Part shown: positions 30,038 to 55,937 of the stretch, piece after piece | Position numbering within the stretch: the first letter of the stretch is position 1 | How the letters are laid out: every line of letters begins with the position of its first letter | Origin: Candidatus Babeliales bacterium | GTDB taxonomy: Bacteria > Babelota > Babeliae > Babelales > Vermiphilaceae | Direction of reading: 5' to 3' | DNA length: 64,000 bases | Assembly (NCBI GenBank): GCA_963743635.1 | Contig: CAVUQO010000003.1 | Location: 416,001 to 480,000 of the forward strand | Translations under genes and position numbers: made by a program | Notes under the pieces: model-generated | The model's database searches: none | Told to the model about the DNA's origin: nothing | Seen by the model: only the letters and a program-made list of their open reading frames with translations

Positions 30038-30073
30038 AAAAAAAGCGAGAGGTATTTGATTACCTCTCGCCTT
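30038..30073 (-). terminator. Rho-independent terminator
   Basis: GCGAGAGGTA...TACCTCTCGC with an adjacent A-run (U-tract on the minus strand). Confidence 0.75.
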
Positions 30074-30091: not shown

Positions 30092-31087
30092 TTAGAAATG
30101 ATATTCTCGGTAGTTTTTTGCAGCGGCAATGTTCCGCTCATCTTCAGGTGTTAGTTTTTTCGGTTGTTCTACCGTTTTTTTAATTTCGGTATTTTCAAGA
30201 ATTCGTTCAGCCATATCAGTTACTTCGCTTGGTAATGAGTCGTTTTTTAGCAAAGCAGGATCAATAGATGCTGTTGGCGTTTGAGCAAGGAGTTCTGCTT
30301 CGAGCGCAGCTTGTTCAGTTTTTAATGCCTGAGCAATGCTGAGACGTTCAGCTCTGAGTGTTGCGCGTTCAATAATAGTGCGCATGAGTTGTTCATTTAA
30401 TGCGCGGCGATCTCTTTCTAAGATTCTGGTATCAGCACTTGATGGTTCTTGAAGCGATAATCTTTTAAACAATTTATTTTCGAGCGCATCTAATGCAACC
30501 ATATCTTTTGACGCTAATTTTTTGTATTTCTCGCTTTTCCATATGGTAACTGATGGATTAAAGAATGTGATGAGAGGTATCAAATCGCGATAATTATTAT
30601 GAAATATTGCATAGGTGTTATCCCACGTATTTTCAATGGGCGATCCGGGTATTAATCCATCTTTAAAACTTTTGGCAAGTCTACTGCCGAGCGTTACTCT
30701 TTTACGTCCATCGGCGGGAAATAAATCCATAGCCCTGCACGTATTGCGCATGACGGCGTTAGTGAGTTTATTTCTGTTTTCATAGGCATCATTCAGCATG
30801 TTTTCAGTGTAGGCATAACGCTGATCTAATGATTCGCTTTGTGCCGTGAGTGCTTTTATTTTGTTCGTGTGTTTGATGATCATTGCTTGATTTGGTTTTT
30901 GGTGATCAATAGCATCGCCTAACCCGCGCGTACCAGTTGAAAAGGTACGAGTGAAGGTCAATTTAAGGCTTTGTATTGCCGTGGAGGCTGCAAGAGCCAA
31001 ACCGCGTGTTCCCTGCATTGCCTGGATGGAGTTACCCAAACAGACTGCAAACAGAGTAATTATAGTGAAATAAGCATGTTTCTTCAT
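30092..31087 (-). CDS. Secreted coiled-coil protein with mitochondrial-presequence-like mature N-terminus
   Basis: Signal peptide ending IQA|M, then 34 aa without D/E including RTFST; helical heptad-rich body. Confidence 0.75.
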   Translation of the reverse strand: MKKHAYFTIITLFAVCLGNSIQAMQGTRGLALAASTAIQSLKLTFTRTFSTGTRGLGDAIDHQKPNQAMIIKHTNKIKALTAQSESLDQRYAYTENMLNDAYENRNKLTNAVMRNTCRAMDLFPADGRKRVTLGSRLAKSFKDGLIPGSPIENTWDNTYAIFHNNYRDLIPLITFFNPSVTIWKSEKYKKLASKDMVALDALENKLFKRLSLQEPSSADTRILERDRRALNEQLMRTIIERATLRAERLSIAQALKTEQAALEAELLAQTPTASIDPALLKNDSLPSEVTDMAERILENTEIKKTVEQPKKLTPEDERNIAAAKNYREYHF

Positions 31088-31363
31088 ACCATTCTCCTGT
31101 TATTAAAAGATATATAGAGGACGTCCTCTATATAATATTATCAAATTGAAATGTTTTGTAAAATGGGTAGGGGCTATTCTATGCCCTTAAAATAGCTATT
31201 TCCAGGGGCAATGCCTGGGGTTGTTTGAACGCATTTTTGAAAATTTGGCTATTTTGAGTTTTTCAGACATGAAATAATGGCGAGGGGATTCTAGGGCAAT
31301 ATTTTGGCGGTAATTTCCTACGGAAGTCGTATACTATATGGGGTATATAAAGGGATTATTTTC

Positions 31364-33275
31364 ATGTCATTGTTGTTGCGTATCATATTTTTTCTGCTTG
31401 TGTCTCTATGCGCGGCTGTTGCCGGCATCGGGGTGTTTTTTGCGCATAATAAATGCATCGATTTTTCTGCGCTTGCACACTATGATCCGGGGACGCCGAG
31501 CGTACTTTTGGATGATGAAGGTATTGAGTGGGCACGGTTTCAGTTAGACCGACGTGAGCCGATTGCATATGCCGCAATGCCTAACCATTTAATCAATGCA
31601 TTTATTGCGGCGGAAGATTGGAGCTTCTTTACTCATTCGGGCATTTCATGGCGCGGCATTTTTCGCTCTACGCTTGTGAATTTGTATCATGGCCGCATTG
31701 TGCAAGGTGCAAGCACTATTACGCAGCAATTAGTAAAGTTGCTTTTCTTGGATTCGAAAAAGACGTTCACGCGTAAAATCAAAGAGCAGTGCTCTGCCTT
31801 TTTAGTTGAGCAGCAATTTTCAAAACAACAAATTTTAGAAACTTATTTGAATCATGTTTATTTTGGGCATGGTATTTATGGGGTGGAAGCCGCGGCCCAG
31901 CGTTTCTGGGGTATTCATGCTGCAGATGTTTCGCTTGATCAAGCGGCAATACTAGCAGCGATTGTTCGTTCTCCGCGTACCTATTGCTCCTTTAGCGCAG
32001 CCACTTTCTGCACGACGCAGACGTAACGTTATTTTACATTCAATGTTAAAACTGAATGTGATTGCGCAGGATGAGTATGCGGCGGCTCGTGCGCGTGAGG
32101 TTTGCGTTATTGAAGCGCAAAACAAGCAGTGTGCGGTTCATTTAAAGGAAACGATTCGACAATGGTTGGAAGAGCAGTTTGGCAGAGAAGCGCTGTATAG
32201 CGGTGGCTTAGTAGTACAGACGACGCTCAATCGTGAGGTGCAGCAAAAGGCAGAAGTTTCTTTTCATGAAACGATTGCGGGTCTTAAGGAGACATTGTTG
32301 CCAGAAATTGATGGCGCGCTCATCACAATGGAAACGGAAACGGGCGCGATAAAAGCGATGATTGGTGGATTTGATTTTACTGCCTCGCAATGGAATCGTG
32401 CATTACAAGCAAAGCGGCAGGTTGGTTCTACCTTTAAGCCGCTCATTTATGCGGCGGCGGTTGCGCAAGGAAAACGGTTTGATGATCGAGAGATTGATGA
32501 GCCGTTTGAAATGGAATCGGGAAATAGTATCTGGAAGCCTAATAACTTTAATCACAAGTTTGCGGGCGAAGTAACTCTTGCCTATGCGTTATCTCATTCG
32601 AATAATATTGTAACGATCAAAACATTCTTAGATATTGGCAGCGATCCGGTGATTGAGCTTGCAAGGAAATGTCGTTTGCCTGGACCATTGCATCCTTATC
32701 CTTCGTTGGCGCTTGGTTGCATCGATCATACGCTTGACGTGGTGACCGGTATGTTTAACGTATTTGCGCATGATGGCGTGTACGTTGCTCCTCATTATAT
32801 GAAATGGGTCAAAGATAAATGGGGCAGTAAAGTCTGGCGCCATACGCCGGTGCAGGAGCGAGTAATGCCATCGGAAGTGGTGGGCCAAGTTGCGAAAGTA
32901 TTGGAACATGGATTGCAGCGGGTGCGTGCCATCTATGCACATAAATGGTTTGCGGGTGATGCGATTAGTAAAACGGGTACCACTAATGATTCGCGCACGT
33001 GTTGGTTCATCGGCTCAACGCCGCGGCTCACGACGGGCATCTATGTTGGATGTGATGGTAATCAATCGCTGGGACGGAACGTTTTTCCATTGCGAACAGC
33101 CTTTCCCATTTGGTTATCTCTGTATCATGCGCTACAACCAGCGCCCGAACGATTTACGTTTGATTCGAGCTTGAAAGAATATTATATTCATGAAAAGACT
33201 GGCTTGAGCGTAGCGAGCTTAAAAGAGCCTGGAGCGGTAGCCATTTTACGTAAAGATGAATCGTGTCATGCATAA
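31364..33275 (+). CDS. mrcA: Penicillin-binding protein 1A, one frameshift near 31988
   Basis: Transglycosylase AAEDWSF, QGASTITQQLVK, RKIKE, YLNHVYFG; transpeptidase GSTFKP, SNN, KTGTTND. Confidence 0.9.
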
Positions 33276-40045: not shown

Positions 40046-40487
40046 ATGAGAGATTTTGAACTCATAGATCATACGGCAGATTTAGAAATTCGTGTGTATG
40101 GTGCAACGCTTGAAGCTATTATTTCATAATGCGCTATGCGGGATGTTTCAGGCAATTAAGCCAGAAATTCCCGGATGCAGTATTAAAAATGATCGAGTGT
40201 TATGCAAAGAATTATCTCGCCATCATAAACTGCATATTGAATCTCCTGATCGTGATGCATTGCTCGTTGATTTTTTATCGCAAGCGCTTTACTTATCTGA
40301 TGTGCATAATGAAGCATATCTTGATGTTACCATTCATGCATTGAGTGATACGATGATCGATGCGACAATCCATGGCGCGCCAATTACCGGATTTGCAGAT
40401 GTCGAGATTAAGGCAGTTACGTATCATGATATGAAGATTGAAAAAGTGGATGACATATGGCAGGTCGATATAGTGTTTGATATTTAA
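40046..40487 (+). CDS. Archease, one frameshift near 40118
   Basis: FELIDHTADLEIRVYG and EIKAVTYH...IVFDI. Confidence 0.92.
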
Positions 40488-40844: not shown

Positions 40845-42293
40845 GTGATACGAAAAGAAGATTTAATTAAAATTAACGAATATACCTACGAAATTTCAGA
40901 TGCATTTCGCTCTGATATGCGCGTTCCTGCGCGTATTTTTACGCATGAAACCATGCTGCAATCAATTACGCAGGATCGATCATTGAGCAGTTAGTCAACG
41001 TGGCGACGTTTCCAGGTATTCAAAAATATGCATTTGCAATGCCCGATATTCATCAAGGATATGGATTTCCGATTGGTGGCGTTGCCGCAATGTCAATTGC
41101 TGATGGGGGCGTGATATCGCCCGGCGGCATTGGATACGATATTAATTGTGGCGTGCGTATGTTGACCGTTGATATTTCGTATGACGAGATCAAGCCATAT
41201 TTAGAAGAATTAGCGAGAGCACTATTTGATGAGTTCCTTCGGGTGTTGGGCGTGGCGGATTAATGAATTTAGATACGCATGAACTTGATAAAGTGCTGCA
41301 GTATGGTGCGAATCGTATGGTAGAGCAGGGATATGGCAATGACCGAAGATTTGCTTTTTTGTGAAGAGCATGGACGTATGCATGACGCGAATCCAGAGCT
41401 GATAACGAAAGAAGCAAAAAAACGCGGTAAAGATCAGTTAGGGACACTTAGGATCAGGCAATCATTTTCTTGAAGTGCAACGTATTACTGAGATTTATGA
41501 TGAACGATAGCAAAGGTGTATGGCATAAAAAAAGATATGATAACGGTGATGATTCATTGCGGTTCGCGCGGATTGGGTCATCAAACATGCACCGATTATG
41601 TGCGGCTGCATGATGAAGGCATTGCCGCAATGGAATATTCAGTTGCCTGATCGTGAATTAGTTTGTGCGCCATTTCATGCAGATATTGCGCAAGAATATT
41701 ATGTGCTATGGCAGCAGCGGCAAATTTTGCATGGGCAAATCGCCATACCATTGGCCATTGGCGTCGTAAAACATTTAAGAAATTATTGGGCGAAAGGTAA
41801 CGATGTAAAAACACTTTATGATGTTTCTCATAATATTGGCAAACGTGAAAAGCATATGATTTATGGCAAAGAAGTTGACGTGATCATGCATCGCAAGGGT
41901 GCAACGCGCGCATTCGGCCCCGGCACGATTGAAACGCCAGAGCCATATCGTTCTATTGGACAACCCGTGCTTATTCCTGGTACAATGGGCACCGCTTCAT
42001 TCATATTATCGGGAACATCTGAGAGTATGAACGTTGCATTTGGCAGCTCTTGCCACGGCGCAGGGCGTAGTATGTCCCGCGCTGCAGCACAAAAAAAGGT
42101 GAGTGGTAATCAGTTACGTAAAGAGCTTGAATCGCGTGGTATTATTATTCGCTGTGATTCAAATAAAGGTCTCGCAGAAGAGGCTCCATTTGCGTATAAA
42201 GATGTACAAAATGTAGTTGACGTCGTACAGGGCGCCGGGCTTGCGCATAAAGTTGCACGCATGGAGCCGATGGCGGTGGTTAAAGGTGGCTAA
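40845..42293 (+). CDS. rtcB: RtcB RNA ligase (archease-associated type) with multiple frameshifts
   Basis: [73 protein letters not shown]. Confidence 0.93.
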
Positions 42294-42345: not shown

Positions 42346-42386
42346 AAATAATTGTGAATAAAAAAATAACGAGCAAAGGAACAATC

Positions 42387-42779
42387 ATGAACTATAAAAC
42401 AATGTTGCTGTGCGCGGTAATTGGTGCATCGATGCAGAATGCATGGGGTATGGATGAACTACAAAAAAGAGCGGAAGAAGTACGAAAAAAAATAATTGAT
42501 TTGCGGACGAAGATCGTGAATGAGGAAATCACACAAAGAACGAGCGGGATGCTTAAGTTGGAAGGCTTGGTCAGACAGAACAGCACAATTATTTGTAATG
42601 AACCAGAATTCGCAACGATAAGGCCTAAGCTGGCCGCATTTCACAAGACTCTCAAAGAGTCTGATAGTGCGGATATAAATTATGAAATGGCTTCAACGGC
42701 AACAGCATTGGCAAACGAGTTTGAAGCTGCGTTGAAAGAATATCAAGAGAACAGGAACGTAACGAATAATAATAACTAA
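42387..42779 (+). CDS. Array gene 1: shared-leader secreted helical protein
   Basis: MNYKTMLLCAVIGASMQNAWG|MD. Confidence 0.85.
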   Translation: MNYKTMLLCAVIGASMQNAWGMDELQKRAEEVRKKIIDLRTKIVNEEITQRTSGMLKLEGLVRQNSTIICNEPEFATIRPKLAAFHKTLKESDSADINYEMASTATALANEFEAALKEYQENRNVTNNNN

Positions 42780-42789
42780 TGGGAGTACC

Positions 42790-54983: not shown

Positions 54984-55937
54984 CTAAAACAAATATATGA
55001 GCATAAGTGAAATAAGCAATGAGTAAATTGCGCAGGTATCAATGAGCCCTTGAGCAAATATGCTGACTTTGGAAAGTAGTTCATGCTGGTCGGGATTGAG
55101 TGCAATTTGTTCGCAGGCAGCAGAAGCGGTGATGCCCGAGCTTATGCCTGGTCCGAATGTTCCGAGGCCTGTAGAGAGCGCTGCAGCGAGTAATGCAATA
55201 CTTTTCGCAAGAGCATGATCTGCGGGAAGTGGTGTGAGTAAAATGAGCATTGCAATGACAAGACTAAAAATGATCGGCGTTTCAATCATTGCTTCACTGA
55301 CTAACATAAATGAAAACAATTTATTATATGCTTCGCGATTGATACCAACGCCGCGACACGCTACTTTAGCAAATCGCGCAAGTCCAATGGCAGGTCCGAT
55401 GCTGCCAAGCCCAATGCATAATCCTGCGGCAATTAATTTTAAACTTTCTTCAAACGTCTGTATCGTAGCCGCTTGATTTATGATCATGACTGCAACGATA
55501 AATCCAAAGATGATGGGCGTTTGTAAGATTGATTGAGTAAGGAGCATGAAGCGCAATATCTTTTGGCTGAAGAAAGGCTGACGTGCAATAGCATAACATG
55601 CTTCACGTGTTGGTAATGCAGAAATGAGTCCGATTGTAAGGCTAGAAAAACAGACCGCAAGCATAACGCCGAGTTCCGCATAATAGCCATAAATAGATGC
55701 CGGTTGGCTACGCAATAAAATAATTGCGATTGCAACACCCATGATTGCGGCAGTTTCGATGAGTGCCATGCCAAGTATCGCAGCTTTTGAGATATCGTCT
55801 TGCGCGGCGGGTTGTTGGTTGATGGCATCCAGCGCAGCGCCGCTTGTCATCCCCTCGCCAATACCAACGCCAATAGAGCTGATACCAACTGTCAGAGCGA
55901 TGGTGCTATAGTGTATTAATTCACCCAGTTCTATCAT
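54984..55937 (-). CDS. atpE: ATP synthase Fo subunit c with four fused hairpins (N-ATPase-like)
   Basis: Four repeats with loops QQP, RQP, INR, LNP and outer helices LIETAAI, ILQTPII, MIETPII, LIDTCAI. Confidence 0.9.
   Translation of the reverse strand: MIELGELIHYSTIALTVGISSIGVGIGEGMTSGAALDAINQQPAAQDDISKAAILGMALIETAAIMGVAIAIILLRSQPASIYGYYAELGVMLAVCFSSLTIGLISALPTREACYAIARQPFFSQKILRFMLLTQSILQTPIIFGFIVAVMIINQAATIQTFEESLKLIAAGLCIGLGSIGPAIGLARFAKVACRGVGINREAYNKLFSFMLVSEAMIETPIIFSLVIAMLILLTPLPADHALAKSIALLAAALSTGLGTFGPGISSGITASAACEQIALNPDQHELLSKVSIFAQGLIDTCAIYSLLISLMLIYLF

Follow-up and report, generated by a model that had tools for sequence, protein, structure and literature searches.

A Candidate Mitochondrial Presequence Mimic behind a Predicted Sec Signal Peptide in a Babeliales Bacterium

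Introduction

Sorting signals can be stacked, as in the proteins of complex plastids, where a signal peptide and a transit peptide are read in sequence. Effectors of phytoplasmas and Liberibacter follow Sec-dependent delivery and carry eukaryotic sorting signals, and HopI1 of Pseudomonas syringae is an effector with a J-domain that acts at an organelle of its host. That effectors imitate the organelle signals of their hosts is already established. Map of enteropathogenic Escherichia coli (EPEC) has a mitochondrial targeting signal at residues 1-44 (PMC7492733), EspF and the Vibrio cholerae protein VopE are further type III effectors with N-terminal mitochondrial targeting signals (PMC2891835, PMC5357651), and the rust fungus proteins CTP1, CTP2 and CTP3 form a modular secreted family with a cleavable N-terminal mimic of a chloroplast transit peptide, which is necessary and sufficient for entry (bioRxiv 10.1101/019521). 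Here we present the gene P0001, located at 30092..31087 on the minus strand (stop codon within the span) of a 64,000-nucleotide stretch of a Candidatus Babeliales bacterium genome (GCA_963743635.1, contig CAVUQO010000003.1, positions 416,001 to 480,000), hereafter the window. It encodes a 331-aa near-orphan protein that is predicted to be exported and whose signal peptide is followed by a segment resembling a mitochondrial presequence.

We propose that P0001 carries a Sec signal and then a mimic of a host mitochondrial presequence, a reading of the sequence that we regard as evenly poised between acceptance and doubt. The layout of the N-terminus, its composition, the modularity and recurrence of the leaders and their conserved end motif are directly seen. 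A wider proposal is put forward tentatively, at somewhat less than an even chance: bacteria of the same order would have evolved a portable Sec signal plus presequence mimic with its own processing site and placed it in front of unrelated passengers (J-domain proteins, a coiled-coil protein and an expanded family whose members have a stretch resembling a membrane anchor), and bacterial proteins, Hsp70 co-chaperones included, would be imported into host mitochondria. Among open-access papers and preprints, none was found that links Dependentiae or Babeliales with mitochondrial targeting signals.

Signal Peptide and Leader of P0001

Word-indexed and exhaustive HMMER searches returned only two relatives of P0001, namely P0002 with 93% identity and P0003 with about 30-33% identity over residues 76-274. 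Residues 1-23 of P0001 (31019..31087, minus strand) consist of a basic MKKH start, 14 uncharged hydrophobic residues and the sequence N-S-I-Q-A, and a rule-of-thumb script together with reading of the sequence places I at -3 and A at -1 of the cut. Judged by the usual anatomy of such signals (basic n-region, uncharged hydrophobic h-region of about 7-15 residues, small residues at -3 and -1), this start is predicted to be a Sec-type signal peptide that signal peptidase I would cut after I-Q-A. The resulting Q-A/M junction (cuts are written here as a slash) is retained in P0002, in P0003 and in a third protein, P0006, presented below. Other signal types were considered and rejected. In substrates of signal peptidase II the h-region closes with a lipobox of the pattern [LVI][ASTVI][GAS]C; the only Cys here is preceded by F-A-V, which is no lipobox, and the signal peptide of P0003 has no Cys at all. 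A Tat signal, which would call for a twin-arginine motif in the n-region, was discarded as well, the n-region being MKKH with no Arg ahead of the h-region.

The segment behind the signal peptide comprises residues 24-57 (30917..31018, minus strand), so that 30917-31087 corresponds exactly to codons 1-57 of the 331-aa open reading frame (ORF). Its 34 residues include 3 Arg and 1 Lys (K+R 4), no Asp or Glu, 10 Ser/Thr, 9 Ala/Leu and 5 Gly, with G-T-R-G-L at either end, and the first acidic residue after the signal peptide is D58. A recent DNA duplication behind the two G-T-R-G-L copies was rejected, as the third base differs in four of the five codons. Residues 47-51 (30935..30949, minus strand) read R-T-F-S-T and form a candidate processing site of the R-3 type (R-x-F/S); the span up to F/S is 26 residues long and the acid-free span 34. 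The earlier note on this DNA had quoted a 34-residue chain without Asp or Glu, rich in A/S/T/L/R and containing RTF-S, and its quotation agrees with residues 24-57. The two-part layout that it claimed, a cleavable Sec-type signal and then an acid-free Arg/Ser/Thr/Ala-rich segment with R-x-F-S, can likewise be read in the sequence.

Matrix presequences are characterized, in PMC7723863, as 20-60 residues long, high in Arg, poor in acidic residues and able to form a positively charged amphiphilic helix; the mitochondrial processing peptidase (MPP) cuts two residues past an Arg (R-2), and the removal of one more residue by Icp55 gives R-3. P0001 presents the Arg and acid contents of such a presequence (3 Arg, 1 Lys and no Asp/Glu in 34 residues), and R-T-F/S-T agrees with the processing-site pattern R-x-[FYL]/[SA], as a pattern match only. 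The leader would become N-terminal only once the signal peptide has been removed, as is presumed to happen. Between P0001 and P0002 the leader differs by one substitution in 34 residues and the whole protein by 22 in 331. The R-T-F-S-T motif is retained in P0002 and reads K-A-F-S-T in P0003, which also retains Q-A/M-Q.

Recurrence of the Leader before Other Passengers

A profile of the three proteins (alignment A1) matched the N-terminus of P0006, a 649-aa protein of genome G150, which belongs to another family within the same order. Similarity between P0001 and P0006 is limited to residues 6-57 (BLASTP E 3e-6), and their post-signal segments align with a Smith-Waterman score of 61 (z 9.7) that none of 2000 composition-preserving shuffles attained. 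Because two otherwise unrelated proteins share only this region, the leader can be regarded as a portable module. No Pfam family was found for P0006. G150 has 16 matches to the N-terminal module, all in clustered paralogues, and a metagenome protein set added 15 further module-bearing proteins; apart from P0002, these belong to the G150 type. Fourteen G150 starts were read, and they have a signal peptide ending in Q-A (H-A once), then Met and an Arg-rich, acid-poor stretch, mostly ending in R-x-[YHQ]-[SA]-T; behind the leader, this family has a short stretch of hydrophobic residues and then a cluster of acidic ones. A similar leader is present on a protein of genome G041. The G150 family occupies C1 at about 750-765 kb, 820-841 kb and 1,099-1,108 kb (loci L010 and L019-L035), with ORFs of 61-879 aa, most of them over 300.

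Within the genome under study (G000), counts were taken from a crude set of 1,460 ORFs of at least 80 aa (411,925 residues), some of them surely spurious, with ORFs and signal peptides called by crude scripts. From 22 long acid-free runs behind predicted cuts, P0001, P0004 and P0005 were picked by eye for a Met-Gln start and the lack of a membrane or low-complexity stretch, before the motif search. P0004 (438 aa) and P0005 (754 aa) share only a signal-plus-leader region of ~90-110 residues (E 3e-4; alignment A3), and the passenger of P0005 is unrelated to that of P0004. Their leaders end in R-S-F-S-S and R-S-L-S-S, respectively. The crude proteome has no more than 26 instances of the pattern R-x-[FLY]-S-[ST] (about 6e-5 per residue), yet all three picked proteins contain it, which is far from chance, though the motif was defined after looking. 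Near N-termini in general it is not enriched (11 seen against 8.9 expected in the crude proteome). Beyond its own genome the A3 leader profile gave only five weak matches (E 8.7e-4 to 0.009), and the three of these five loci that still matched on re-scanning are signal peptides followed by other sequence.

P0004 is a J-domain protein (Pfam DnaJ, 48.4 bits against a cut-off of 27.8, residues 104-159), with H-P-D at residue 132 and matches to PDB J-domains at E 7.5e-7 and weaker. Searches with P0004 matched 19 other genomes; 12 of the 14 loci returned match the J-domain alone, and the remaining two are leader-bearing J-domain proteins of G122 and G228. No orthologue of P0004 was found among these 19 genomes and 14 loci. 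In the G228 and G122 proteins the signal peptide is followed by an acid-free leader, 75 or 68 residues long when counted from the junction of the script, by R-S-F-S-T or R-T-M-S-T and then by the J-domain, and the end motif aligns across these two proteins and P0004. J-domain proteins of three genomes therewith carry a 56-75-residue acid-free, Arg/Ser/Thr-rich leader ending in R-[ST]-[FM]-S-[ST]. Other J-domain proteins with signal peptides (G135, G210) are without the leader. A J-domain requires Hsp70 and ATP; such passengers fit the proposal, since a J-domain would be useless in a periplasm without Hsp70 and ATP and meaningful in the matrix or cytosol. The three loci are G000 C2:560781-562097 (L005:501-1817), G228 (L061:1465-2832) and G122 (L059:21-881, minus strand).

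Composition was pooled over 20 leaders, many of which are paralogues and not independent, by comparing the first 34 residues after the junction with positions +61 to +260 of the same proteins. Arg makes up 12.4% of the leaders against 3.7% of the downstream parts, Lys 3.7% against 7.6%, Asp+Glu 1.6% against 12.6%, Ala 18.1% against 9.9% and Ser+Thr 19.1% against 12.0%; in counts, the leaders hold 84 Arg and 25 Lys. The amphipathicity shuffle p is below 0.1 in 12 of the 20 (median 0.09). The presequence-type composition and R-x-F/S site advanced by the earlier note thus agree with the features given in PMC7723863 and recur before unrelated passengers in G000 and four other genomes of the same order, but the amphipathicity that should accompany them is marginal.

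Mature Part of P0001

The mature passenger, residues 58-331 (30095..30916, minus strand), is helical and coiled-coil-like, and is best conserved at about residues 105-135 of alignment A1. P0001 alone had no match in 40 relative genomes. The three-protein profile gave only two weak N-terminal matches (residues 5-59 and 47-103) in 260 other genomes of the phylum, and no additional family members were found with it. No Pfam family passed its cut-off (best Pox_F11, 12.7 bits against 24.5), NCBIfam gave no match and a protein atlas search no usable one. The AlphaFold2 model is all-helical and poor, with a mean predicted confidence (pLDDT) of 58.1; residues 71-150 and 181-210 reach about 69-83 and residues 11-65 stay below 50. 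Foldseek returned no match for this model at E <= 0.001, and the best VIA-align match is the coiled coil of IpaB (Z 12.6), within the generic range of that tool for long helices. The earlier note's description of P0001 as a coiled-coil effector is only loosely supported, as the all-helical model is poor (pLDDT 58) and the coiled-coil fold matches are generic. The mature part is best described, from the model, as a probable near-orphan helical protein.

Genome Setting and Proposed Route

The genome (1.45 Mb, 3 contigs, 85% complete) has four matches over cut-off to the TLC ATP/ADP translocase, against none in 14 control genomes, and its gene content suggests an energy-parasitic bacterium living inside protists. 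It encodes two secretins, and the window itself holds a prepilin-type protein and a prepilin peptidase. Ten sampled proteins with a signal peptide/Met junction comprise four WD40 propellers, one ankyrin protein, two RING-finger proteins, one BamA and two without a family; one of the RING proteins clearly has ankyrin repeats and the other has sub-threshold ankyrin matches. A RING finger is of use only alongside the ubiquitin system of a eukaryote, which implies that proteins with Sec signals do reach the host in this organism. For the cultured Dependentiae member Chromulinavorax, signal peptides are reported on 44% of the coding sequences; its effector candidates are Sec-dependent, vesicles were seen, and the host mitochondrion wraps the replicating bacterium (PMC6561590).

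On the proposed route, signal peptidase I would cut after I-Q-A and leave a new N-terminus of ~26-34 residues, rich in Arg/Ser/Thr/Ala, acid-free, moderately amphipathic and ending in R-T-F/S-T. Once exposed, this leader would act as a portable module mimicking a host mitochondrial matrix presequence. P0001 would exit the bacterium, plausibly via the secretin/pseudopilin machinery or outer-membrane vesicles, and in the host cytosol the leader would be recognized by the TOM/TIM23 route, with a processing peptidase cutting at R-x-F/S and the helical passenger being delivered into host mitochondria. The cleavage, the exit, the import and the processing are all inferred.

Methionine after the Predicted Cut

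The earlier note had also explained the Met at +1 of P0001 by mitochondrial targeting. This explanation fails, because Met follows the cut genome-wide, BamA included, and Met at +1 was accordingly dropped as evidence for a presequence. With a cleavage rule blind to +1, 93 of 545 crude signal peptides have Met at this place, where 14.7 would be expected, and in 61 of the 93 it is followed by Q, D, N or E; [AGS]-M within residues 15-35 was seen 379 times against about 142 expected. BamA, with its Omp85 and POTRA domains, belongs to the signal-peptide/Met set, as do many proteins with an acidic start to the mature chain, and the junction is also found in proteins of other genomes of the phylum. 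Possible causes are a preference of the signal peptidase or a shuffling of 5' gene ends.

Examples of a signal peptide followed by Met in the window lie at 42354-45528 and 61856-63292. The former (plus strand) is a tandem of six small paralogues of 140-201 aa, with closely similar signal peptides of the M-N-Y-K-T-I-M type and then Met; two of the six have Pro/Asn-rich acid-free starts. Elsewhere in the genome (C2:59088-60068), a signal-peptide/Met protein has a strongly basic acid-free start with a net charge of +7 in 30 residues (5 Arg, 2 Lys), and is possibly a further member of the leader class or the bearer of a nuclear-type signal.

Weighing the Interpretations

Several observations weigh against a presequence mimic, beginning with the statistics of P0001 itself. 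An acid-free run of at least 34 residues after the predicted cut is found in 22 of 525 crude signal-peptide ORFs; P0001 ranks 22nd, and several of those above it are membrane or low-complexity proteins. Acid-free 34-residue windows make up 5.0% of the crude proteome (3,624 of 73,051), and in 63 ORFs such a window has 4 or more K/R, 8 or more S/T and no membrane-like stretch. The first 30 mature residues of P0001 have a net charge of +3, a value attained in 24 of the 188 signal-peptide/Met proteins, and net charge was rejected as a discriminator, its distribution over the 188 being continuous and without a separate class. The hydrophobic moment of the segment (0.483, 18-residue window, 100 degrees) lies at the 89th percentile of proteome windows and is reached by 9.6% of shuffles (p 0.096); with a 14-residue window it is 0.62 (shuffle p 0.050). 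Taken alone, the leader of P0001 is not beyond chance, and its significance comes from the comparison with other proteins.

That comparison has its own weak points. The P0001 segment shows no significant similarity to its counterparts in P0003, P0004 or P0005 (p 0.29-0.57), and 10 of 12 comparisons with G150-type paralogues give p above 0.05 (P0015 counted, at 0.0525), so that the leader class is held together more by composition and motif than by sequence. The counterpart in P0003 is shorter, is rich in Lys and has 3 acidic residues among the first 34, and its A-F-S-T is preceded by K instead of R. The residue before S/A in G150 is often Q or H and not F/Y/L, and 5 of the 14 scored G150 leaders lack R-x-x-[SA]-[ST] as written. 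Eight of the 20 pooled leaders, whose kinship was mentioned above, are not below p 0.1 for amphipathicity (L030, L031 and L034 at p 0.34-0.69). Both the end motif and the leader class were defined after looking. Finally, a periplasmic protein would still have to reach the host cytosol, and shared leaders could reflect mere shuffling of 5' gene ends.

This last point leads to the view that the leader has no specific function and is a disordered low-complexity linker, carried along with shuffled 5' gene ends that encode signal peptides. The composition and amphipathicity of P0001 are within the chance yield of a 1,460-ORF proteome, the AlphaFold confidence of residues 11-65 is low, and near-identical signal peptides are common to paralogue families in the genome. 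Against this view, leaders diverged past recognizable similarity retain Arg enrichment and acid depletion, and a rare five-residue motif stands at the same place before different passengers in four genomes; the slower change of the leader than of the whole protein between P0001 and P0002 also speaks against it, as weak evidence. We consider this view rather improbable. A role on the bacterial side is, in our judgment, unlikely too: the leader would be a sorting signal, a propeptide or a tether to the secretin machinery, vesicles or surface, or would keep the protein inactive until a bacterial protease cuts R-x-F-S. The leader always stands behind a signal peptide and on only a small subset of the secretome, as expected of a pathway-specific signal, its conserved short end motif could equally be the site of a bacterial protease, and secretins and a prepilin peptidase are encoded. 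However, the RING, ankyrin and WD40 proteins of the genome have signal peptides without the leader, which is therefore not needed for exit, and the bias of Arg over Lys and the depletion of acids are traits of presequences. Basic residues right after the cut of a signal peptide tend to hinder Sec export and would be costly on the bacterial side, and we know of no bacterial export signal of such composition, although no search for one was made.

A different host destination, without matrix import, appears very improbable. Plastids, mitochondrion-related organelles, the nucleolus or organelle surfaces bound through a cationic amphipathic helix come into question. With 10 Ser/Thr among 34 residues in P0001 and 26 among 68 in the leader of G122, a transit peptide of the plastid type would also be in keeping, and the hydrophobic stretch and acidic cluster behind the G150 leaders would suit membrane anchoring. 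Arg is well ahead of Lys in the pooled leaders (84 and 25), and classical nuclear signals are more Lys-rich. An Arg-rich acid-free leader that ends in R-x-[FYL]-S comes nearest to the matrix presequences characterized in PMC7723863. A mimic of a matrix presequence is the interpretation we prefer for P0001, at the even level of confidence given at the outset.

Flanking Signals and Neighboring Genes

Upstream of P0001, and like it on the minus strand, a Shine-Dalgarno-like AGGAG was read from the sequence at 31094..31098, 6 nt before the ATG. A sigma-70-like promoter match lies at 31135..31162 (TTTACA, 16 nt, TAATAT, with TG preceding the -10); it is a consensus match only, and six such sites occur in the region against 5.0 expected from shuffles. 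Between this site and the ribosome-binding site there is a perfect 24-bp palindrome (31111..31134, a 10-pair stem and a 4-base loop), a possible operator. Downstream, a hairpin of 13 pairs followed by a T run (30042..30073, minus strand) resembles an intrinsic terminator, and terminator-like sites number six in the region against 1.6 expected. As it begins 19 nt past the stop codon of P0001, the gene looks monocistronic.

On the plus strand, a class A penicillin-binding protein is encoded in two overlapping ORFs of different frames (31304-32026 and 31962-33275), with the transglycosylase domain on one and the transpeptidase domain on the other; a frameshift, a pseudogene or an error of sequencing could lie behind this split. 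Further along the same strand, an Archease gene (40092-40487) stands beside a 231-aa RtcB ORF (41598-42293), whose match to the 426-position RtcB profile is confined to its C-terminal half (positions 204-426), and the RtcB gene may be truncated or broken. Finally, a 317-aa ORF at 54984-55937 (minus strand) contains three ATP synthase subunit c stretches and adjoins the gene of subunit a; from its sequence it looks like a fused or triplicated c subunit.

Comparison with Known Systems

The members of this phylum are widespread and mostly uncultured parasites of protists, with many signal-peptide proteins. A recognizable portable leader would give a sequence handle for picking mitochondria-bound proteins, with P0001, the J-domain proteins and the G150 family as testable candidates. 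If true, the proposal would give bacteria an equivalent of the complex-plastid leaders, in which a signal peptide precedes a transit peptide, and would offer a candidate explanation of how mitochondria are remodelled in the case of Chromulinavorax (PMC6561590). What would be new is that a bacterium stacks a Sec signal on a mimic of a presequence and that this arrangement has spread as a module.

P0001 would resemble Map, EspF and VopE as a bacterial protein delivered to a eukaryotic host and directed to mitochondria by a presequence-like N-terminus. These effectors, however, have no Sec signal peptide; they are injected, and their type III secretion signal overlaps the targeting signal. In P0001 the leader stands behind a cleavable Sec signal and would become N-terminal only after the signal peptidase cut, and there is no sequence similarity to them. 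Their targeting has been experimentally shown, whereas that of P0001 is a sequence-based proposal. With CTP1, CTP2 and CTP3 it shares the plan of a secreted modular family with an N-terminal mimic of a host sorting signal, but there the pathogen is a eukaryote, the destination is the chloroplast and the evidence is experimental; here it is a bacterium, a mitochondrial-type composition and computational evidence. The complex plastids, the phytoplasma and Liberibacter effectors and HopI1 are likened to P0001 by description only, and organisms, organelles and delivery routes differ. Concerning the eukaryotic matrix presequences themselves (processed by MPP, Icp55 and Oct1, with R-2, R-3 and R-10 sites), PMC7723863 supports a likeness in the high Arg and few acidic residues and in the Arg at -3 before F/S, and a possible one in the 20-60 length range and the amphiphilic helix tendency; the leader of P0001 differs from them in being bacterially encoded, in its place behind a signal peptide and in its marginal amphiphilicity.

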